Virus record (IMG/VR): IMGVR_UViG_3300050821_005814
Span: 42,806 to 106,805 of that record
Direction: 5' to 3' (one strand)
Source: a virus
Length of the DNA stretch: 64,000 nt
In this document: positions 7,687 to 56,083 of the stretch, piece after piece
How positions within the stretch are numbered: the stretch's first letter is position 1
Layout of the letters: every line of letters starts with the position of its first letter
Notes under the pieces: generated by a model
Databases searched by the model: none
The model's input: the letters and a program-made list of their open reading frames with translations, nothing else
What the model was told of the DNA's origin: nothing
Made by a program: the position numbers and the translations under genes

Positions 7687-7974
7687 TTAGGGTGCTGCCA
7701 TCGCCGTTGGATGGTCGAGGAAGGAGAACACTGGCGTGATCTCAATGCGGAGCTGGTTGCTTGCCCCACCATCCCATGACGCTTGGCTGCCTGATGCATC
7801 AACCTGCACTGGCATCATCGGCGGATATGCATCGAGTGCTGCCTCGATGATGTCAACGGCTTTCAGCATGATGGACTGTTCAGGTTCAGCCATCTTCATC
7901 GATGATGCTTGCCGCTTGATCTCCGCCATGACGAGTGGCGGCCGGCCGGTTACCTTGTAGAAGCTCCACGACAT
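7687..7974 (-). CDS. Hypothetical protein
   Basis: GGGGAG RBS; MSWSF...ASGSQ pattern. Confidence 0.55.
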   Translation of the reverse strand: MSWSFYKVTGRPPLVMAEIKRQASSMKMAEPEQSIMLKAVDIIEAALDAYPPMMPVQVDASGSQASWDGGASNQLRIEITPVFSFLDHPTAMAAP

Positions 7975-8096
7975 AGTCGATACTCCCCCTTAGTGAATGC
8001 AGCGCCAAAGCACTGCTAGCAACATGATGGCGCAACCAATGCCGAATACCGTAGCGAATGACTGCGCGAACAGATCCAAGTATGCGCGTAGTGTCT

Positions 8097-9957: not shown

Positions 9958-10623
9958 TCATCCATGATGTACCCGCCGCACAAGCGCTAGCGCGCCAAGC
10001 GCTAATGCTAGTATGAACGCACTGCGCGGTTCAGGCGTGCCAATTGAAGGCGGGAGAGGAGTACCCTCAACGCATTCGTGCAGCGCAGCATCCCAATGAT
10101 GAGCTGGTTGACACGGATGATCCTCGACAGGCGTTGTCTCAATGGCGACAATACCTGGCGTGATTATGCCGAACAGCGGGAATGCTGGTATGAACGCGCC
10201 CCCTGGTAACTCCCCGCCGCCAAACCCGAAGGGTGCTTGCGGTACAGGGAATCCAAATGGCGGCCACCATGCTGCGTTGCCATTGTCTGCATTGGACAAG
10301 GGAGGCGGCGCAGCCATACCTACTGGTGGGACAGGAGGTGTTGGGAACTGTGCTGTTGCTGGTGGTGGGCATGCAACAACGAGTGCCAGCACAATGGTGG
10401 CTGGCAATGGTGGGGTTCCTGCATGCCATGCAGCAGCTCCCCATCTGGCGATCACTTCAGCTTTCGTATAGGCATGCTTGGCAACTAACACGATGCAATC
10501 ACTGGCACTCGGCATCTCCTGACACTCCATAGGCTCGCATGCAATATACCCCTGTCCCCACCAATACCAATACGCTGGCGACGGGGCGCTTGCCCCGTCG
10601 CATGTTCCGAAGCGTATACGCAA
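9958..10623 (-). CDS. Pro-rich protein with C-terminal PEP-CTERM sorting signal (start uncertain, possibly 10515)
   Basis: C-terminus TPEPRSAFILALALGALALVRRVHHG = PEP motif, TM helix, basic tail. Confidence 0.7.
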   Translation of the reverse strand: MRIRFGTCDGASAPSPAYWYWWGQGYIACEPMECQEMPSASDCIVLVAKHAYTKAEVIARWGAAAWHAGTPPLPATIVLALVVACPPPATAQFPTPPVPPVGMAAPPPLSNADNGNAAWWPPFGFPVPQAPFGFGGGELPGGAFIPAFPLFGIITPGIVAIETTPVEDHPCQPAHHWDAALHECVEGTPLPPSIGTPEPRSAFILALALGALALVRRVHHG

Positions 10624-16236: not shown

Positions 16237-16285
16237 CGCTGCGCATAGCTACTAGCTTGCGCAGCCTAATGGGAGAACAGTAATC
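16234..16285 (+). repeat. Outlier hairpin plus AATGGGAGAAC element related to the 47-55 kb array
   Basis: gctgcgca...tgcgcagc stem right after the queC stop, then aatgggagaac and ATG. Confidence 0.5.
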
Positions 16286-46633: not shown

Positions 46634-47170
46634 TCGTAGTGGGTTTTTATCTAGTAGTCAGATCTGCGCGCAGATAGTATATTTATGTCAATCCCCTAGC
46701 TAAATAACAGCCTAAAGAGGGGGAATGAGGCAGCGCTAGCTGCTCGCGGGGTCCGACCCCCCGCCCCCATTCCCAGCGGTCAACGGACTAGCTAAGCGCT
46801 GCTTAGCTGCTCCCCACCAGGACCCCTTAGCGCAGCGCAGCGCGGGATTGGGGAATGGGTGACGGAGTACCTGACGAGGACCTCTTGCTTCGGTGCGCTG
46901 ACGTCTGCACCAGCAACGGGACCAGCCGGACCGCCGTGACAGACATGAGTCGGCAGCGTGCAGTATCCTAGTAGCTTCTAGGCAACGAAATGCATGCGAC
47001 GGTGCGCATAGCGCAGCGCGAGTCCCCTTAGCTAGCAGCAATGCAGCGGGAGTGGGGTAGCGCTAAGCGCGGGACTACGCGCCTTAGCATAGCAGGACGG
47101 ACCACACGCTCGGTTTGGGACTCATGCTGGGTGCAAACATAAAGTTCTCTCTCATTGTTCTACTGATGAA

Positions 47171-47244
47171 AGCGTCAATGCTTTTGCATATGCCTCTAGC
47201 GCCGCAGCGCGGGATTAGGCGATATATGCAATTGCATTGACGCT
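47171..47244 (+). other. Long imperfect hairpin in the array leader
   Basis: agcgtcaatgc/gcattgacgct, ttgcatat/atatgcaa, gcct/aggc. Confidence 0.7.
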
Positions 47245-47304
47245 ATGCAGCTATAGCACCTTACGCTGCACTGATGATTCCTGGTGCACAATGGGAGAAC
47301 AAAT

Positions 47305-47646
47305 ATGCTCAAAGCGAAGCGCGTGACGATCGAACGTGACCATCGCGCTAACGGCTACATTGCTGGCTGGAACGGCCGCGTCCCAGGCGACGATCACCCG
47401 GAGTATTTGGAGGGACACAAGCAAGGCGTTGCAGCAGCGAAAAGAGCAAATGACGTCGAAACGTTCGCTGCGCGTACGAGAAAGCATCATAAGGACGTGC
47501 GTGCTGCTGCTAAAGCGCTACGCGACGCTGCGCCTGACCTTGCTAATGCTTTACGACTCGCAAGGGAATTGGCATGCACAGCTGGCGGCTTGCGGCACGA
47601 CCAAATTGACTCATTGCTCGCGCATATGATTCTATACGGCTACTAA
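47305..47646 (+). CDS. Array gene, hypothetical
   Basis: CAATGGGAGAAC-aaat-ATG. Confidence 0.7.
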   Translation: MLKAKRVTIERDHRANGYIAGWNGRVPGDDHPEYLEGHKQGVAAAKRANDVETFAARTRKHHKDVRAAAKALRDAAPDLANALRLARELACTAGGLRHDQIDSLLAHMILYGY

Positions 47647-47715
47647 CGCGTACAGATGCAGCGCATTGCGCTGCATTTGCCTGCGCTAGTGCAGGATACA
47701 ATGGGAGAACAAAAT

Positions 47716-48240
47716 ATGGCTTACAAAGCACGGAAGCTTACGCGCGCTGAGATGACTGCAAAGGAGAACGCAGCGCTTGCAGAGGCGGGTATGGCTATTG
47801 ACGCTGCGAACAGCAACCCAGACACGACGAACGTTCAACGCTATCAGCTCGCGTCGCGCATCCTTTGGATCCAAGGGGCGCACAAGTATGTGTTCCCTAG
47901 CCAACTGATGCTTAGTGCTGCGCATGCGGACAAAGCGAAGTACCAAGCCGACTTTGACGTATATGCTCATGCCGAGGGCGTCAAGCATGCGCGGTCTTAT
48001 GCGCTGGGCGGTGCAAATAGGTATCTCGAGAAAATGAAGAAGCATGCCGAGCGATTGATCGAAGACCTCAACCGCTATCAAGTGCAGCTCAACGCAGACA
48101 ACAACGATAACGTCGACCGGTCCGATCGCTTCGGCTGGGCGGTCAATGAGATCGAAAACTTCTGCCGCAACGTTGGCTACAGCGAAGCAACGCGCATTTG
48201 CGCTACGCTTGCAAAGGCTTTTGACCGCAAAGACGACTAA
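47716..48240 (+). CDS. Array gene, hypothetical
   Basis: Start after the conserved RBS. Confidence 0.75.
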   Translation: MAYKARKLTRAEMTAKENAALAEAGMAIDAANSNPDTTNVQRYQLASRILWIQGAHKYVFPSQLMLSAAHADKAKYQADFDVYAHAEGVKHARSYALGGANRYLEKMKKHAERLIEDLNRYQVQLNADNNDNVDRSDRFGWAVNEIENFCRNVGYSEATRICATLAKAFDRKDD

Positions 48241-48308
48241 CGCGTATGGATGCAGCGTTCGCTCACGCTGCATTCACCTGCGCTAGTGCAGGCAATGGGA
48301 GAACTCAA

Positions 48309-48539
48309 ATGGTTGAAGTTGAAATGATCGGCCGCGCACTCAAGCTTGGCGACAAGCTGAGCAATGGGGCGGTCGTCATGGCATATCGCGACGTAAGCTT
48401 TGATCGGCGCATAGTGCTCGCGCTGTTCCGTCGCACTGAGTATGTCACGTGGCGGCTTGACTATGACAACAACCCCTGGGGCGGACACTACTTCGAGGGC
48501 GACCTCGTCGCCGCTGCCATGGACTTTCTCAGCCGCTGA
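48309..48539 (+). CDS. Array gene, hypothetical (YVTW...WGGHYF)
   Basis: Start after the conserved RBS. Confidence 0.7.
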   Translation: MVEVEMIGRALKLGDKLSNGAVVMAYRDVSFDRRIVLALFRRTEYVTWRLDYDNNPWGGHYFEGDLVAAAMDFLSR

Positions 48540-48552
48540 AGGAGTATGCGCT

Positions 48553-48828
48553 ATGGTTGGAACACGCTTTGAAATCACGGATCTCGACCTTGGCGAGGCT
48601 GCTTACTTCGAGCTCGCGTGCAAGACGCATATGCAGCGCAGCACGTTCGGCACAAGGGAAGCGCTCGTCGCGCTGATCGCTATTGCGCAAGGTAAGCAAG
48701 TCTCCGACGCCGTCCGCAACGATGCGATCAATGCCGCTAGTGCGGTCATCGTACAAAAAGGTTGCGAGGAGATGGGTGAGGGGTTGTCCTACCTGACGGA
48801 CAACATCGACGTCATAATTTACGGCTGA
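48553..48828 (+). CDS. Array gene, second in its unit, hypothetical
   Basis: AAGGAG RBS; stop forms the start of an element. Confidence 0.65.
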   Translation: MVGTRFEITDLDLGEAAYFELACKTHMQRSTFGTREALVALIAIAQGKQVSDAVRNDAINAASAVIVQKGCEEMGEGLSYLTDNIDVIIYG

Positions 48829-48900
48829 CCCTGATGGATGCAGCATAAGGAGATGCTGCATTTACCTAGGCCAGACCTGGGATACAATGGGAGAACGAAT

Positions 48901-49140
48901 ATGAAGGTAAAGTACACGATCACTGCTGAAGTGATGGTCGACATCATGCCAGACGACGACAACAAGGTGCCGCCAAAAGTGCTTCGCAAAGTGCCATCGC
49001 AACTCAAGCATGAGTTGCGGTACACGCTGCAAGAAGACGATCAGCTGTCCAACAGCTTGCTCGATACACTCGGGCATGTCATTCGACTCAAGGTCAAGCG
49101 ATTGGCCGTCGACCAATCCGGACCATTATGGATCCGCTAA
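48901..49140 (+). CDS. Array gene, hypothetical
   Basis: Start after the conserved RBS. Confidence 0.7.
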   Translation: MKVKYTITAEVMVDIMPDDDNKVPPKVLRKVPSQLKHELRYTLQEDDQLSNSLLDTLGHVIRLKVKRLAVDQSGPLWIR

Positions 49141-49215
49141 GTAACTAGCTTGGATGGAAGCAGCGCCAATGCGCTGCTTCTACCTGCGCTAGTGCAGGGC
49201 AATGGGAGAACGAAT

Positions 49216-49563
49216 ATGAAGATCGATCCGACGACCACGCGCCGCATACTTCGGGTTGGCGATATCGTCATGGTCCGCAGCGCGCATACGAACAAGGTGC
49301 TGAAGACGATGAAAATTGATCGCGTCAGCAAGGCGCAAAAGCGCGTGCATCTCGAAGGTCAGCATGCAGACATTGCGTTTTACTACCAGCAAGGCAGCAT
49401 GCACTACAGGCAAAACCCCGGTTCGGGTTTGGCTGGTAGCTTTCTCAACGACTACTTTTGCATCGATGATGTCAAGTCCGGTCCCGGCTATATCGAAGCC
49501 GAAGGCGATGACGGCTCGAAGCTGTTTATCAACAGCAATGGCGATGTACGCGGTATCTTCTGA
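49216..49563 (+). CDS. Array gene, hypothetical
   Basis: Start after the conserved RBS. Confidence 0.7.
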   Translation: MKIDPTTTRRILRVGDIVMVRSAHTNKVLKTMKIDRVSKAQKRVHLEGQHADIAFYYQQGSMHYRQNPGSGLAGSFLNDYFCIDDVKSGPGYIEAEGDDGSKLFINSNGDVRGIF

Positions 49564-49641
49564 CCCTGATGGATGCAGCGCTCGAAGCGCTGCATCTACC
49601 TAGGCCAGCATGGCGTAGGGTATCACAATGGGAGAACTTAC

Positions 49642-50379
49642 ATGGCACTTAACGACAAGATCCGCAAGCTCATGGCACTGGCGACGCACCCTGGCAGCAA
49701 TGCGCAGGAGGCGGCCGCTGCTGCCGCAATGGCTGCAGAGCTTGCGCTCAAGTACAACATCGACCTCGAAAGCGTCTCGCAGGAGACGACAAAGCAGGCC
49801 AAGGTGTTCATGCGCGGTAACACTGCATTCAAGGTGTCGCCGCGTGACCGGTCCGCTGGCTTTGCCATACAGCATGGTATCGCCAAGCTGTATGGTGTGA
49901 AGCCTGCATACCACTATGACGGCAGTCAAAATCATATGTGGTACATTGGACAGGAGCACAACGTTGCTGTTGCCAATAGCTGGTCGGAATACCTTTGGAA
50001 CGCGTGCCTCAAGGCCAACGTCGAGTACAGCCGGCGGCGCATATACGATAGCGCGAAGGAACGCTATCGCGCGGACCAGACCTTCCGTCTGACCTTCTCG
50101 CGTGAAGTATGCTCGCGTCTCGAAGAGAAGCAGCAGCGCATGAAGGACACTGGCGTATCATCGACTGGCACGGCGCTCGTCGTTGTCAATTGGTATGAGG
50201 CTGAGCGCAAGGAGATCCAAGCTTGGGTCGACAATACTATGAAAATGAAGACGACGACCTCGAAGGCAAAGCGCATTGACTCGGGCGCTGCGCTTGCGGG
50301 GCACGAAGCTGGTCGTCGCGTTGGTCTGCATGACCAGCTCGCCGGCCGGGCGCAACCTACAATGCGCCGCATAGCCTAA
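49642..50379 (+). CDS. DUF2786-domain protein
   Basis: DKIRKLMALA......EAAAA...A..L..KYNID; C-terminal AG..AG..V.L. Confidence 0.8.
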   Translation: MALNDKIRKLMALATHPGSNAQEAAAAAAMAAELALKYNIDLESVSQETTKQAKVFMRGNTAFKVSPRDRSAGFAIQHGIAKLYGVKPAYHYDGSQNHMWYIGQEHNVAVANSWSEYLWNACLKANVEYSRRRIYDSAKERYRADQTFRLTFSREVCSRLEEKQQRMKDTGVSSTGTALVVVNWYEAERKEIQAWVDNTMKMKTTTSKAKRIDSGAALAGHEAGRRVGLHDQLAGRAQPTMRRIA

Positions 50380-50459
50380 CCTGTAGGGAAGCAACGCAGC
50401 GCTCAGCGTTGCTTCTCCCTGGGTTAGTTAGTCCAGGGTAACGCAATGGGAGAACTTAG

Positions 50460-51344
50460 ATGACACTAGAACTTAGAGATCCGCAAGTCCGCGCTGAGCT
50501 GTTCGCAATGCGCTGGGCGAGCGAGTCCGCTGCAAAGCAGTGGCTTCGTCGGCAGGGTGCCAATGCTGAGGCATTGACAACCAACGGGCTGATCGTTGGA
50601 ATGGCGCCTGACAACGGCGTCTGCCTGCAGGAGCAGGTTACTGCTGTGAAAGGGACCATCCCGCAGGCGGCAAAGGCAAAGGAGCGCAGCGCTGCAACGC
50701 GCCGTGCTCTCGAGCTGGACGCTGCGACGGGTAAGGGGAAGGTCGCGGACATCGATGACAAGGTCGCAGCGCATGAGAAAGCGGATGCGGCGGGTGATAT
50801 CGAGGATGCGCGGCCGAAGGTTCCCCAAACACTCGTCGACGGGGACACACCACTCCCTGACACGGAGTCGCTGCTCGCGCGGGACACGTCTGGGCGCGTA
50901 ATGATCAATCGGTCGCATGAGGCGTTCATTCGCCTGCCGACAATGGGACCGAAAGACAAGCTTCGCTCCTGGGCGGCATACTACGCCGCTTACCTGCGCA
51001 CTGTCATTGACGTGTGCGATGTCGAGACAGGCGCATTGATCGAACGCTTCAACGGTCGCGGTGCGACAGTACGTCCGCCATCGACCAGCAAGCCGCGCGT
51101 GTCCATGACCAATGGTACTGGTCGCGGCCGCAGGGCGAGCAGCGCTGCACTGAGTCCCTTGCAACTCAAGTGGATTGAGCTTGCGTCGCGTCCAGATGGC
51201 GCCAAGCGCACCGAGCTCACGTCTGCCAATGAGGGCACTGTCCTCAATTGGAAGGGTGTGCTCGAATCGCTTGGTAAGAAGCGCGGCCTGTCGCTGACGG
51301 TCACAAAGGCGCAGGGTGAGACGCCTGTATACAAGCTAGCCTAA
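50460..51344 (+). CDS. Array gene, hypothetical, possible C-terminal DNA-binding domain
   Basis: 294-aa ORF bounded by two elements. Confidence 0.7.
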   Translation: MTLELRDPQVRAELFAMRWASESAAKQWLRRQGANAEALTTNGLIVGMAPDNGVCLQEQVTAVKGTIPQAAKAKERSAATRRALELDAATGKGKVADIDDKVAAHEKADAAGDIEDARPKVPQTLVDGDTPLPDTESLLARDTSGRVMINRSHEAFIRLPTMGPKDKLRSWAAYYAAYLRTVIDVCDVETGALIERFNGRGATVRPPSTSKPRVSMTNGTGRGRRASSAALSPLQLKWIELASRPDGAKRTELTSANEGTVLNWKGVLESLGKKRGLSLTVTKAQGETPVYKLA

Positions 51345-51420
51345 CCTGTAGGGAAGCAGCATGGTAGCGCATGCTGCTTCTCCCTGGGTTAGACCTGGGA
51401 TGACCAATGGGAGAACGAAT

Positions 51421-51747
51421 ATGGCTAGCAGTTCATATATAGGCGAAGAGTACGCCGATCATGTCGCAGTACCTGCTTGTATCAGGCATGACGAAGAGCT
51501 TTGCTGGCACTATGCAGAGCTCGCCGCAGAGATCTTCTTTCGCGGTACGATGCCTCAGTACGATGATGCTGCGTACTGGCGGTATAGCGCAAGCTGTTAC
51601 TTGCCTGAAAACCAGCCGCAGTACCGCAACAGCATGCCTCCTCCTCCTCCAAGCGAGGATGACGCATTTGACATGACCTACGACGATTGCATCGAGGAAG
51701 CTGAAAAGATTGAGTGCGGCTTTGTCGGCGGCGAGGAGATGGTGTGA
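51421..51747 (+). CDS. Array gene, acidic hypothetical protein
   Basis: Start after the conserved RBS; D/E-rich. Confidence 0.65.
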   Translation: MASSSYIGEEYADHVAVPACIRHDEELCWHYAELAAEIFFRGTMPQYDDAAYWRYSASCYLPENQPQYRNSMPPPPPSEDDAFDMTYDDCIEEAEKIECGFVGGEEMV

Positions 51748-51893
51748 TGTCTGACCACGAAATAGTCGAGATGCTCATGCTACTCGGCAAGATCGTATGG
51801 AGCGTCGCTGGGATCGCTGCCGGTGCCTTTAGCATCTTCGCTAATGGCGTCGTCATTTGGCGCATCATGACCGGCAAACGTCTCTGGACCTGA
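51747..51893 (+). CDS. Small membrane protein (48 aa)
   Basis: Manual translation MSDHEIVEMLMLLGKIVWSVAGIAAGAFSIFANGVVIWRIMTGKRLWT; its TGA starts an element. Confidence 0.6.
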   Translation: MSDHEIVEMLMLLGKIVWSVAGIAAGAFSIFANGVVIWRIMTGKRLWT

Positions 51894-51966
51894 CCCTGAT
51901 GGATGCAGCGCAAGCGCGCTGCATCTACCTAGGCCAGTCGCTTAGGACAACAATGGGAGAACGAAT

Positions 51967-52302
51967 ATGGTACCGACTATCAGACTAATGGTCATGCGCA
52001 GCGGTACGCGCTACTTCATCTACAACCGAGGCATGACATTCGTCATGCAGCGCGCGGATGGGTCGCAGGCTGCGCTCGGCCTGATCACGCATGAACCCGT
52101 CATGTTCATGTTCGCGCTGGAAGACGCGCTGCTGTCCAAGGACAACCCCAGCGGCATGGCGATGAAAGCAGCAAAAGCGTTCCTCGGCGAGGACTGCAAG
52201 ATCAACCTTATCCACACTGTCACGAAGCCGATCGAGGATAAGGATCCCGCGATTGAGCTCGAGGCGGCGGGGATCAACCTGACGGAGGCGCATGTGTCAT
52301 GA
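51967..52302 (+). CDS. Array gene, hypothetical
   Basis: Start after the conserved RBS. Confidence 0.7.
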   Translation: MVPTIRLMVMRSGTRYFIYNRGMTFVMQRADGSQAALGLITHEPVMFMFALEDALLSKDNPSGMAMKAAKAFLGEDCKINLIHTVTKPIEDKDPAIELEAAGINLTEAHVS

Positions 52303-52685
52303 AGCGCTATAGCATTCTAATGGTATGCGGCTTGGTTGTTGCGCTTGCTTTTGCGTACGTGCACGGTGCTTTAGCTGATGGATTGCTCACAGCATTCATC
52401 GGCGCAGTATGCGGCATGTACGTTGGCAGTTGGGCATTCCAGCGCTGGGGCGACCCCAAGCTCATGCGGGACTGGGATCGTGTCAGCAACCGCAATTGGT
52501 CGCTTGCGCAAGCAAGTCAAGCAATGTTCGACGCAGGTATCGGCGAGCCTTATGCTGATGCTGAGCACGATATGATCGACCTGCTGCGGGGACACGTGAC
52601 CCTGCCCGAGTTGATCGAGGTGATGCGTATATTACACAACGCATGGGGTCACCGCTTCCTGCATGATCTCGTGACGGGCGACTAA
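52299..52685 (+). CDS. Two-TM membrane protein
   Basis: Two N-terminal hydrophobic helices. Confidence 0.65.
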   Translation: MKRYSILMVCGLVVALAFAYVHGALADGLLTAFIGAVCGMYVGSWAFQRWGDPKLMRDWDRVSNRNWSLAQASQAMFDAGIGEPYADAEHDMIDLLRGHVTLPELIEVMRILHNAWGHRFLHDLVTGD

Positions 52686-52754
52686 CGCGTACGGTTGCAG
52701 CGCTTGTCAGCGCTGCACTCGCCTGCGCTAGTGCAGGACAATGGGAGAACAAAT

Positions 52755-53420
52755 ATGGTACGCATACTATCGGTTGACTGGGACTTCTTCGTCGAGGAAG
52801 ACCCCATGCTTGACTATGGGCATCGCGAAGTAAGCCTGTTCCTCGAGATGATCTGGCATACGCGTCGCCAAGGGTACCTATGGGACCCAGCGACGCAAAC
52901 GGCCGAACCCATTCGACGTGACCTGACAAAGCTCCTGCCGTTCCGCGGCGACCCAGCGTTTCTGCAAGTGGCAGCTATGCGCTGGCACAACTACGACGTT
53001 GCGGTCGCTGAGTCACACCTGACAATCTTACAGATGATTGGGCAGCGGACCGATCTCGAGATCATCAACGTCGACGCGCATCACGACATTCACTATGGTA
53101 CCTTGCCCAAAGATGATGTCGTGCATTGCGGCAATTGGGGCGCTCACCTCATGCAGCAAAATCGCGTGCGCTCCTGGACGCAGATCTACCCGGAGTGGCG
53201 TCAGAAGTACAAGGAGACGTTTCCCCGGACATGGGCAAAGAAGCACTGCCCCAAAGTGGCCGTAAAGTTTGGCGAGCAGCGCATTCCATGGCGCGATGTC
53301 GACGCTGTCTTCATCTGCCGCTCAGGGTGCTGGACGCCGCCTGAGTACGATGTGCGCTTCAATGCGTTCACTGAGGCGATGGGTTCTAGCTACAAACTAC
53401 CTGAACGCGCGATCGAGTGA
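52755..53420 (+). CDS. Arginase/deacetylase-fold metal-binding protein (UPF0489-like)
   Basis: ILSVDWDFF, AESH, INVDAHHD, HCGNW, FICRSGCWTPP. Confidence 0.65.
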   Translation: MVRILSVDWDFFVEEDPMLDYGHREVSLFLEMIWHTRRQGYLWDPATQTAEPIRRDLTKLLPFRGDPAFLQVAAMRWHNYDVAVAESHLTILQMIGQRTDLEIINVDAHHDIHYGTLPKDDVVHCGNWGAHLMQQNRVRSWTQIYPEWRQKYKETFPRTWAKKHCPKVAVKFGEQRIPWRDVDAVFICRSGCWTPPEYDVRFNAFTEAMGSSYKLPERAIE

Positions 53421-53507
53421 CCTGCGAGGGAAGCAGCATGCATGCATGCATGCTGCTTCTCCCTGGGCCATAGTGGTCACCAGGGTTAGCAATGGGAGAA
53501 CTTAGTT

Positions 53508-54575
53508 ATGTCACACGAACTAGCTCAGACAGCCGATGGGCGTGATGCAATGGCATATGTCGGGCGTGCGCCTTGGCATAAGCTCGGGCAGAAGCTTGAG
53601 GCTGGTGCGAGCAAGGAGGAGTGGTGCAAAGCGGCAGGCTTCGACTTCCAGTATCTCGTGGACACAGTGCGCTTCGAACACAATGGAGCGCAGCACGAGA
53701 TGCCAAGTCGCCTCGTCATCTACCGCGGCGATACCTTGGCGCCGATGTCGATCGTGAGCAATCAGTTCAAGATCGTTCAGCCAAGTGACGTCATGGCCTA
53801 CTTCGACTCACTCGCGACACGTGCAGGGTTTCAGCTCGAAACGGCTGGGCTGCTGTTCGGCGGCAAGCAACTCTGGGCGCTTGCCAACATCGGCGACGAA
53901 AAGGCGGTCGCATCGGCAAAGGATCGGATCAAGGGGCGGTTGCTCATGGCAACAAGCGTTGACCTGTCACTGCCGACAACGCTCAAGTTCCTTGCGGAGC
54001 GCGTTGTCTGTCACAACACGCTATCGTATGGGATGAGAGAAGGCGGCGGGACGACAGTGCGTGTCCGTCATCGCACGACCTTCCGTCCGGATGAGGTCAA
54101 CGAGCAGCTAGGCATCACAATGCAGAGCGGCTTCGATGAAGCGATGGAAGACTTCCGCCGCTTGGCTGACACGCCGATGAACGACATCGAGATGATCGAG
54201 GCGACGATTGCGCTGCATGATCCGTCCGCGATGGACAAGGATCCGGACGAGCTCATGCAGCTACTTCACAACCACAAGCCCATCCAGCGGATCGGCGAGT
54301 TGTCAATCGGCGAGGAGGCTATCGGGTCGGAGTTACCGGGAGCTGCTGGTACGGCGTGGGGATGGTTGAACGCTGTCACGCAATACTATGATCACGAGCG
54401 GAACGCGCGGTCGGATGACTTCCGCCTGTCGCGCACTTGGTTTGGCGATGGCGATCGCATGAAGTCGCGTGCGTTCGAGATTGCTATGATGACAGCGAAT
54501 GGCGATGAGTCATACAAGCATGACTTCCAAGCCAGCGGCGGCGCATTGCTTGACGCAGTGCTCGCAGCTACCTAA
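53508..54575 (+). CDS. DUF932 (TIGR03299-like phage/plasmid) protein
   Basis: PWHKLG, IVS..FK.VQP, ETAG.L.GGK..WALA, RVVCHNTL, GTAWG.LNAVT.Y.DH. Confidence 0.9.
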   Translation: MSHELAQTADGRDAMAYVGRAPWHKLGQKLEAGASKEEWCKAAGFDFQYLVDTVRFEHNGAQHEMPSRLVIYRGDTLAPMSIVSNQFKIVQPSDVMAYFDSLATRAGFQLETAGLLFGGKQLWALANIGDEKAVASAKDRIKGRLLMATSVDLSLPTTLKFLAERVVCHNTLSYGMREGGGTTVRVRHRTTFRPDEVNEQLGITMQSGFDEAMEDFRRLADTPMNDIEMIEATIALHDPSAMDKDPDELMQLLHNHKPIQRIGELSIGEEAIGSELPGAAGTAWGWLNAVTQYYDHERNARSDDFRLSRTWFGDGDRMKSRAFEIAMMTANGDESYKHDFQASGGALLDAVLAAT

Positions 54576-54641
54576 CGCGTATGGATGCAGCGTTTCGCGC
54601 TGCATCTACCTGCGCTAGGGCAGGATAATGGGAGAACTCAA

Positions 54642-54947
54642 ATGGCTAATCTTACGAAGCAAGAAGCGAGCGTGCTTGCTGGGATGTTTGCTGTGACCAA
54701 CATGGGTCAACGGTGCCCAAGCAAGGAGCTCATACTGCGCGCAAAGCGCAGCGGGCTGAACGATGCCAACTCAATTGCGTGCATGTTCGCCGTGGAGTAC
54801 ATGGAAACCGTTGCTGACGAGAAAGCTTGGACGCAAGAGACGCGCTATTGGCAGCGGGAGCTCAGCAAAATGACCATGGAGAAAGTCGCTGAGATATGGC
54901 CAGACAATGCGAAAGCATATGCGGAGGCTGTAGCCGCGAACGCCTGA
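54642..54947 (+). CDS. Array gene, hypothetical
   Basis: Start after the conserved RBS. Confidence 0.7.
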   Translation: MANLTKQEASVLAGMFAVTNMGQRCPSKELILRAKRSGLNDANSIACMFAVEYMETVADEKAWTQETRYWQRELSKMTMEKVAEIWPDNAKAYAEAVAANA

Positions 54948-55030
54948 CCTGCGAGGGAAGCAGCATGCATGCATGCTGCTTCTCCCTGGGCCAGATGGTT
55001 TACCAGGGGCACAACAATGGGAGAACGAAT

Positions 55031-55261
55031 ATGAGTACGCGAGTAGAAATCGTACTGGGGATCAACCTGACACTCGCATTGCAGCGGGTAGATCATCCGA
55101 TCCGCGGTGCGCTGCCTGTCATCGCACTCTACACCTACAGTGCTAACGGCAACATCGAACAGCGGATCGATCTCGTAGGCGCGCGTAGCTTGCGGGATAC
55201 GCTTGATGCCTTGATCAAGGACATCGAGCACGATCAAAAGCTTGAGATGGAGCGCGTATAA
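55031..55261 (+). CDS. Array gene, hypothetical
   Basis: Start after the conserved RBS. Confidence 0.65.
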   Translation: MSTRVEIVLGINLTLALQRVDHPIRGALPVIALYTYSANGNIEQRIDLVGARSLRDTLDALIKDIEHDQKLEMERV

Positions 55262-55441
55262 ATGGGAAAAATTCGTATGCGCACCAGCACAGCAGTCAAT
55301 TTGGTCAAGCGCGGTATCCGTGACGGTCTCACGAACGACGAGATCCGCGCGCTGCCGCAATTCAAGCGGCTTGAGGCCGATTGGAAGTACCGCGTCAACG
55401 ACAAGCAAATTGATCGCTTGCGCGGCCTCAACGTCGACTGA
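55262..55441 (+). CDS. Small basic protein (59 aa)
   Basis: Manual translation MGKIRMRTSTAVNLVKRGIRDG...; its TGA starts an element. Confidence 0.55.
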   Translation: MGKIRMRTSTAVNLVKRGIRDGLTNDEIRALPQFKRLEADWKYRVNDKQIDRLRGLNVD

Positions 55442-55517
55442 CCTTGATGGAAGCAGCGGCAATGCCGCTGCTTCTACCTCGGCCAGAGTGGACGAGGGTT
55501 ACAATGGGAGAACTCAA

Positions 55518-56050: not shown

Positions 56051-56083
56051 GGGAGCTGAGTGTTTGCACCCAGCTCCTTTTCT
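56051..56083 (+). terminator. Rho-independent terminator closing the array
   Basis: ggagctg...cagctcc plus ttttct at the convergent junction. Confidence 0.8.

Follow-up and report, generated by a model that had tools for sequence, protein, structure and literature searches.

Why does the leader of a phage early-gene array carry a strand complementary to the ribosome-binding site that recurs throughout that array? The window analysed here is the right 64 kb of the 106,805-bp genome of an uncultured phage, whose gene content includes a family A DNA polymerase, ribonucleotide reductase, helicases, a terminase and baseplate proteins. A megablast search of the GenBank phage records found no close relatives among deposited phages, and no deposited phage record exceeds 30% identity to the DNA polymerase. 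The array, at 47.3–55.7 kb, contains about 19 small co-oriented early genes.

Fourteen start codons at 47288–55513 are preceded by a shared ribosome-binding block of 13 nt, R-C-AATGGGAGAAC, written here as ACAAUGGGAGAAC. The first-pass annotation had described a motif common to 14 ribosome-binding sites, and counting agrees with it: CAATGGGAGAAC (TAAT- in one copy) occurs 14 times at 47289–55513, always on the plus strand and 3–6 nt 5′ of an ATG. Copy 1 of the block, ACAAUGGGAGAAC at 47288–47300 on the plus strand, abuts the tail of the ribozyme-like motif described below, and the start codon of gene 1 follows at 47305–47307. By motif count, the plus-strand copies 2–14 start at 47699, 48293, 48885, 49200, 49626, 50444, 51405, 51951, 52739, 53490, 54626, 55015 and 55502 (to 55513), each behind a two-hairpin cassette. 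Other genes of this phage have ordinary AGGAG/GGAG sites. A solitary copy, TAATGGGAGAAC at 16267–16278, lies outside the array in the replication/nucleotide-metabolism region, 7 nt 5′ of an ATG and behind a hairpin; modelled binding of the leader fragment discussed below to this copy is only −8.2 kcal/mol.

A pattern scan of metagenome contigs identified one true relative of this locus, L185, which is identical to contig L171 over their overlap. It has at least seven cassettes with the identical 12-mer, a lower bound as the locus (JAEHJW02 contigs) stops before the end of the array. Across 21 copies from the two phages, eleven positions of the block are at 2.0 bits and the edges are sharp, with 0.02 and 0.06 bits at the two flanking positions. 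Of the two variable positions, one is C in 20 copies and T in one, the other A in 14, G in six and C in one. Orientation and distance to the ATG are fixed in all 21.

We considered and rejected complementarity to 16S rRNA as the basis of the extended motif: with a standard anti-Shine–Dalgarno tail, pairing is limited to GGGAG. A search for a phage RNA polymerase or sigma factor that might read the motif gave no PF00940 or PF04542 match, a weak answer because the PF00940 control matched nowhere. An IMG/VR scan for the motif followed by ATG returned single chance matches only, GTDB genome scans for two cassette patterns returned none or single chance matches, and the motif string gave only irrelevant matches in the literature.

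The complementary strand, GUUCUCUCUCAUUGU, lies on the plus strand at 47144–47158, and its counterpart in the relative is at L185:7672–7686. Several claims of the first-pass annotation about it hold. The DNA at 47138–47158 reads cataaagttctctctcattgt, as given; the element does lie just 5′ of the long hairpin at 47171–47244; and UCUCUCAUUGU (47148–47158) forms 11 contiguous base pairs, one of them G-U, with ACAAUGGGAGA. A second register, with 8 bp, a 2-nt bulge (UC) and 5 bp, pairs all 13 nt of ACAAUGGGAGAAC. The further claim that pairing runs on through the AUG stands only in part. In the predicted copy-1 fold CAU (47138–47140) does pair with AUG, the CAUA of the plus-strand CAUAAA at 47138–47143 pairing with UAUG at 47303–47306, which includes the gene 1 start codon, but it does so only across an asymmetric loop and the pairing is not conserved in relatives.

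Only two plus-strand sites in the whole 106,805-bp genome can form 11 or more contiguous pairs with the motif. By duplex energy the leader site ranks 5th of about 107,000 positions, and no better complementary site occurs in the 21.5 kb surrounding the array. The conserved stretch of the block and the stretch that pairs with the anti strand are the same 13 nt. Variation inside the block is largely pairing-neutral: 20 of the 21 copies have a purine opposite U, and the one C-to-U change faces G; the single non-pairing variant is the C at the purine position in the copy at 51405. In both this phage and L185 the complementarity ends at the shared block and does not extend into sequence specific to copy 1. 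The anti-RBS complementarity is thus real and rare, and it is conserved.

The long hairpin of the first-pass annotation takes on a new meaning when its flanks are included. From 47165 to 47287 on the plus strand, a descriptor search identifies a motif like a type II hammerhead ribozyme, which the covariance models do not score. Read from the sequence, its stem II strands are G47165–A47166 and U47279–C47280, and the core bases G12A13A14 (47168–47170) directly abut stem III, the 74-nt hairpin at 47171–47244, which has 10 perfect base pairs at its base, A47171 pairing with U47244. Cleavage is predicted after H17, A47245, in the triplet C-U-A. Stem I (6 bp, 47246–47251/47265–47270) is followed by the core sequence CUGAUGA (47271–47277), and all elements abut as required. 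A 5-bp pseudoknot can form between GCACC in loop I (47256–47260) and GGUGC in the tail (47283–47287). Stem II has only two pairs, U47279-A47166 and C47280-G47165, beside a U-U; in the hammerhead family this stem has at least 2 bp and usually a G10.1-C11.1 pair. The conserved core, closed stems I and III, open stem II, N-U-H triplet and pseudoknot are those of a type II hammerhead.

The descriptor, which combines GAAA, a stem III hairpin, U, H, a stem I hairpin and CUGAUGA, all abutting, matches this genome once over both strands, at 47168–47277 (0.05 in random genomes). It also recovers 32 hammerheads in relatives, including those in the leaders of L137, L167 and L170, and 21 type II hammerheads in intergenic cassettes of L167, L169 and L170 score above the Rfam gathering threshold. 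The leader motif itself is found neither by Rfam RF02276 (nothing at E ≤ 10 in 231 nt or at E ≤ 1 in 14 kb) nor by a covariance model built from 36 ribozymes of the relatives and run with filters off. The leader hammerhead of L170, canonical when inspected by hand, is likewise missed by Rfam. Since the covariance models do not score the leader motif, its membership of the hammerhead family is putative, and we call it hammerhead-like on the basis of the descriptor match and its position.

That position is precise. The tail of the motif ends one base before the ribosome-binding block and six bases lie between the anti strand and stem II, and in the leaders of L137, L167 and L170 a hammerhead is placed between the strands in the same arrangement. 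Analogous loop-tail pairs are seen in the leaders of L137 and L170. Pairing between the 5′ flank and the hammerhead’s own tail amounts to −20 to −25 kcal/mol at the first hammerhead detected in this phage, L137, L140 and L146, and mostly to −5 to −14 kcal/mol at later hammerheads.

Some further observations concern the ribozymes and cassettes. A second CUGAUGA at 47163–47169 overlaps the GAAA of the leader motif (CUGAUGAAA), and one cassette subtype starts CCCUGAUGGAUG. The leader ribozyme of L169 (L169:12440–12470) has CCGAUGA instead of CUGAUGA and may be inactive; the anti strand of that leader is the strongest of all. The 13 internal cassettes of this phage (47643–55500), each comprising hairpins H1 and H2 and the ribosome-binding block, sit where L167, L169 and L170 have type II hammerheads. 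They match no Rfam ribozyme family, and may be processing sites or an undescribed self-cleaving element.

L185 provides the closest comparison. Its helicase is 47% identical to that of this phage, and its array has four syntenic homologues with 33–47% protein identity and an unrelated first gene. The two leaders are otherwise unalignable. The anti element of L185, GUUCUUCCCCAUUGU, lies 113 nt before the first motif, just 5′ of a 12-bp hairpin, and has the geometry of this phage’s, with 8 bp, a 2-nt bulge and 5 bp. The differences between the two elements are confined to the bulge and to a C/U opposite G, and the L185 element is the best complementary site of its 13.6-kb locus. L185 has no CUGAUGA at all, and a two-hairpin cassette takes the place of the leader hammerhead. 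As L185 keeps the anti strand without CUGAUGA, the pairing is independent of a hammerhead. L185 also has a second, partial anti-like element, CUUUUCCCCAUUGG (L185:7285–7300), about 500 nt 5′ of the first ribosome-binding site, which shares UUCCCCAUUG with the main one. The small genes flanking its leader (L185:6711–6983 and 7815–8027) look like paralogues, both containing ALRR..G(I/V)SAA(R/K).Q..AGW.RKPT..DL..FAQRRG.

More distant phages, identified as helicase relatives at about 28–30% identity, have arrays of their own with other extended ribosome-binding motifs. In L169 the motif is AATGGAGAGAGACAA (9 copies), and no site in 16 kb outscores a leader strand, GUGUCUCUCUCUCUCC, about 100 nt before the first site (−18.5 kcal/mol). 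The L137 motif, ACATAGGAGAGAGAA (10 copies), is matched by UAUCUCUCUCUUCUCCUA about 75–95 nt before the first copy, the best site in 21 kb, and the L170 motif, AAAGGAGAGAGACA, by UUCUCUCCUCUCCU about 135 nt before the first site, which ranks 5th. Each of these leader strands complements its own motif, so the anti strand follows the motif of its own array. Judged by these sequences, the anti strand co-varies with its array’s motif across lineages, a comparison that rests on few genomes and in which the strands of L137, L169 and L170 are low-complexity CU tracts. L167 has only a weak leader complement, GUUUUCUCC.

The pattern does not extend to all arrays. We found no leader complement in arrays whose Shine–Dalgarno motifs are short and ordinary (L148, L161, L165/166 and L139). 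The IMG/VR relatives L091–L121 (helicase 38–48% identity) have no such array within 10 kb, and show no nucleotide homology to the leader or the cassettes. A DUF932-like array protein is absent from five related genomes. In this phage, L185, L137 and L169 the 450 nt before the first copy contain the best site of the whole locus (13.6–21.5 kb), and windows of 450 nt that are equally good make up only 0.02–0.03 of the total.

Upstream of the anti strand the leader has other conserved features. A single-copy block, CGGCAGCG(Y)GCAGTATCCTAGT, at 46951–46972 on the plus strand is identical at 21 of 22 positions to L185:7577–7598, and GACA lies 5 nt upstream of it in both phages. This block is a candidate promoter (GACA-N18-TATCCT) or a conserved element of the leader RNA; we infer the promoter reading from its sequence. 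In both phages a CTAGG further downstream could pair with the CCTAG at the end of this block. No sigma-70 promoter for the array stands out, promoter-like sites being no more frequent than expected from shuffled sequence, and none of sigma-70 type is present inside the array cassettes. The motif GGGTATA(T/A)TG, often after ATG-N, recurs at 10542–36205 before middle/late genes in the direction of transcription. Neither the array nor its leader contains it, as would fit an early region served by another class of promoter.

A helix that could close the leader is formed by CATGAGTC/GACTCATG (46944–46951/47119–47126). In L185 the corresponding strands (7572–7577/7646–7651) are GCTTGC/GCAAGC, so that the sequence differs and the pairing is kept, which suggests that the leader is a structured RNA starting upstream of 46944. 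Conservation and structure in this upstream part lend indirect support to one transcript carrying both the anti strand and the first block. There is also an exact 14-nt inverted repeat between 47126–47139, 5′ of the anti strand, and 56061–56074, in the loop and 3′ arm of the array terminator. As the genome has 76 long-range inverted repeats of at least 14 nt, the match alone is weak; its placement is unlikely by chance.

Folding predictions bring these observations together. In all five leaders the anti strand is placed on the first ribosome-binding site in minimum free energy and/or centroid folds, with the inner hairpins intact, and in an ensemble model the first copy is the best partner of the whole leader fragment, at −18.4 kcal/mol. 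The strand thus has complementarity to a Shine–Dalgarno sequence, is predicted to pair with it in the leader fold, and is conserved in this phage and four relatives. Action in cis is also favoured by the short distance between the two strands and by the yield of one leader from each transcript. We therefore rank first, at a probability of roughly one half, the reading in which the leader strand masks the gene 1 ribosome-binding site in cis, around the ribozyme motif. In the primary transcript the partner of the anti strand would be the closest block, at gene 1 (47288–47300). Because the two strands directly flank a motif whose stem II is open, the duplex would act as an outer extension of that stem, closing the ribozyme domain and hiding the gene 1 Shine–Dalgarno sequence.

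Self-cleavage after A47245 would then cut the covalent link, leaving the anti strand on a separate fragment that ends in the 74-nt stem III hairpin. There is a precedent in E. coli, where translation is gated by a Shine–Dalgarno/anti-Shine–Dalgarno pair built into a self-cleaving ribozyme’s open stem (PMC5052635). The leader fragment might leave and so unmask gene 1, as in such engineered switches, or it might stay and rebind. A −18.4 kcal/mol duplex is very stable, so cleavage alone may not unmask the gene. That the first genes of the two closest phages are non-homologous also counts against a clear gating target for masking in cis. Transcription through the element, its cleavage and the effect on translation are what we infer from sequence and models.

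A ribozyme cut would blur the distinction between cis and trans action, because it would make the anti strand a separate molecule. The reading we rank second, and hold only tentatively, is that the leader fragment, released by the ribozyme or by some other processing, accumulates and pairs with all 14 blocks, so shutting off the early regulon. Co-evolution with one leader RNA would then be why the block is invariant; cis masking is compatible with this reading. The ribozyme-released RNA would then be a single master anti-RBS riboregulator with a private 13-nt ribosome-binding code, a proposal we regard as possible and some way from probable, as we do its corollary that code and anti strand co-evolve, as RCAAUGGGAGAAC in this phage and L185 and as GGAGAGAGACA-type in L169, L137 and L170. 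Silencing of all 14 copies is thermodynamically feasible in the models, and the sequence patterns hint at it. The edges of conservation in the 21 copies coincide with the edges of complementarity, the variation within the block keeps the pairing, and the complementarity in both phages takes in nothing peculiar to copy 1, whose gene is not conserved between them. Ranked by local duplex, the first copy is one of the weakest targets in four of the five arrays (this phage, L185, L169 and L170), and the anti strands of L169 and L170 fit the array consensus better than their own first site. Fragment 47100–47245 binds the 14 sites with modelled energies of −7.1 to −18.4 kcal/mol (median about −13), whereas 28 control gene starts have a median of about −7.4 kcal/mol, about 6 worse. 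In both phages the fragment folded alone leaves the anti strand unpaired, with a very stable hairpin on its 3′ side, and the predicted cleavage after 47245 supplies a candidate 3′ end. However, the whole-fragment ensemble model favours the first copy, with which intramolecular pairing should win, and one leader per transcript facing up to 14 sites is insufficient unless the RNA accumulates. No promoter or terminator of its own is evident for the leader RNA, and the invariance of the block could be explained otherwise, for example by a protein partner or by cassette exchange.

Other explanations seem to us less probable still. The duplex might serve only as a clamp that holds together a weak stem II, or an equivalent processing element, for efficient removal of the leader, masking being a by-product with no regulatory role. 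Stem II is indeed weaker in leaders (2 bp beside a U-U here, about 1 bp in L137) than the GAC/GUC of internal hammerheads, and strong flank pairing is largely limited to the first hammerhead detected in each array. Yet any sequence would serve as a clamp and every lineage uses the ribosome-binding block, L185 retains the anti strand where it has no hammerhead, and hammerheads with a stem II of 1–2 bp and a loop-tail pseudoknot are active without clamps (PMC3088659), so we think this unlikely. The first-pass annotation had offered a minus-strand alternative, in which the inverted motif is the ribosome-binding site of an 18-aa ORF (47084–47140). That frame exists, the reverse complement reading ACAATGAGAGAGAAC-TTT-ATG followed by 18 codons, but in L185 TTTTACCATT comes after the inverted copy, the next 18 nt lack a start codon and the frame is not kept, so we reject the inverted motif as the ribosome-binding site of that ORF. 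An operator or divergent promoter element in the DNA is also disfavoured: the 2-nt insertion relative to the motif in both phages would disrupt a common protein site, the C/T difference opposite G is neutral only in RNA, and neither orientation nor distance to the ATG varies among the 21 array copies. We consider a signal of this DNA-level or minus-strand kind highly improbable. The same low weight falls on a chance match or on the functionless, decaying remnant of an inverted cassette. Duplex energy is equal or better at four other plus-strand sites of the genome and CU tracts are low in complexity, but chance does not readily explain an equivalent position in five arrays, or a best site of the locus that falls so close before the first copy in four of them.

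Cis masking of the gene 1 site is therefore the reading we carry forward. What is new here is that the long hairpin at 47171–47244 appears to be stem III of a hammerhead-like motif lying exactly between the anti strand and the first ribosome-binding site. Given this arrangement, the anti strand probably blocks access of ribosomes to that site, and it may be set free on a small regulatory RNA. This links the first ribozyme of the phage hammerhead arrays, known since 2011, to a conserved anti-RBS strand, and offers a testable function for it, either ribozyme-gated translation or a ribozyme-made regulatory RNA. If silencing in trans were true, it would account for a block of 13 invariant nt, where a Shine–Dalgarno sequence needs about 6, in 21 ribosome-binding sites from two phages with only about 45% protein identity. 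Early-gene shut-off would also gain a route that uses RNA only, beside the protein systems RegA and RegB of phage T4.

Several known systems share parts of this arrangement. The phage T4 genes e and soc have hairpins that sequester their ribosome-binding sites in long early transcripts, and the lambda N leader is processed by RNase III. As proposed here, an upstream strand in a long leader occludes a ribosome-binding site and the RNA that lacks that strand is translated; those systems use alternative promoters or RNase III, however, and have neither a ribozyme nor a repeated ribosome-binding code.

A closer parallel in logic is the c4 antisense RNA of the immI operon of phages P1 and P7, reportedly described by Citron and Schuster in 1990. 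It is encoded upstream in its target’s operon on the same strand, is processed from the leader by RNase P and pairs with a downstream ribosome-binding site; the CI RNA of phage P4 is related to it. The regulatory RNA proposed here would likewise lie upstream in the operon of its target, on the same strand, be processed from the leader and pair with a downstream site. In contrast, RNase P rather than a ribozyme cuts c4, which acts on one target operon in a temperate phage rather than on 14 repeated sites. The C4 antisense RNA family of Rfam has no match in this leader or array. P1 c4 RNA is cited as a leader-encoded regulator of a downstream ribosome-binding site in PMC8201110.

The PeSLs of T4-like phages are promoter-terminator cassettes (PMC2839356, PMC4122927). 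Like the cassettes of this array, which also contain stem-loops, they are short conserved composite elements repeated between small variable early genes. We rejected the array cassettes as PeSLs, no sigma-70-type promoter being detectable here, and PeSLs lack an anti-RBS strand in a leader.

Clustered type II hammerheads occur in polycistronic RNAs of phages and prophages, and their purpose is given as not known by Perreault et al. (2011; PMC3088659; RF02276), who also describe a pseudoknot between loop I and the 3′ tail. The CUGAUGA/GAAA core, closed stems I and III, short open stem II and loop I-tail pseudoknot of our motif are shared with the hammerheads of that source, as is the position just 5′ of a ribosome-binding site among small phage genes. 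Compared with those arrays as presented there, the motif here occurs in the leader only, has a 74-nt stem III and escapes covariance models; the 13 internal cassettes of this phage, with two hairpins each, belong to another kind of element. This phage has an anti-RBS partner upstream, and none is mentioned for those arrays in the parts of that paper available to us.

The nearest likeness is to engineered ribozyme-gated switches, in which a bacterial 5′-UTR contains a hammerhead or twister ribozyme whose open stem has been given a Shine–Dalgarno/anti-Shine–Dalgarno pair (Felletti et al. 2016, PMC5052635, and a hammerhead design cited there). In both, the anti-Shine–Dalgarno and Shine–Dalgarno sequences sit on the two strands leaving the ribozyme and the ribosome-binding site is masked until the backbone is cut, as is predicted here. 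Unlike those switches, the element here is natural, its duplex has 13 bp, and an internal loop with the pseudoknot tail precedes a 2-bp stem II. Its anti strand matches a block that is repeated 14 times, cleavage and gating being putative. If it works as we propose, it would be the natural counterpart of a design that synthetic biology built independently.
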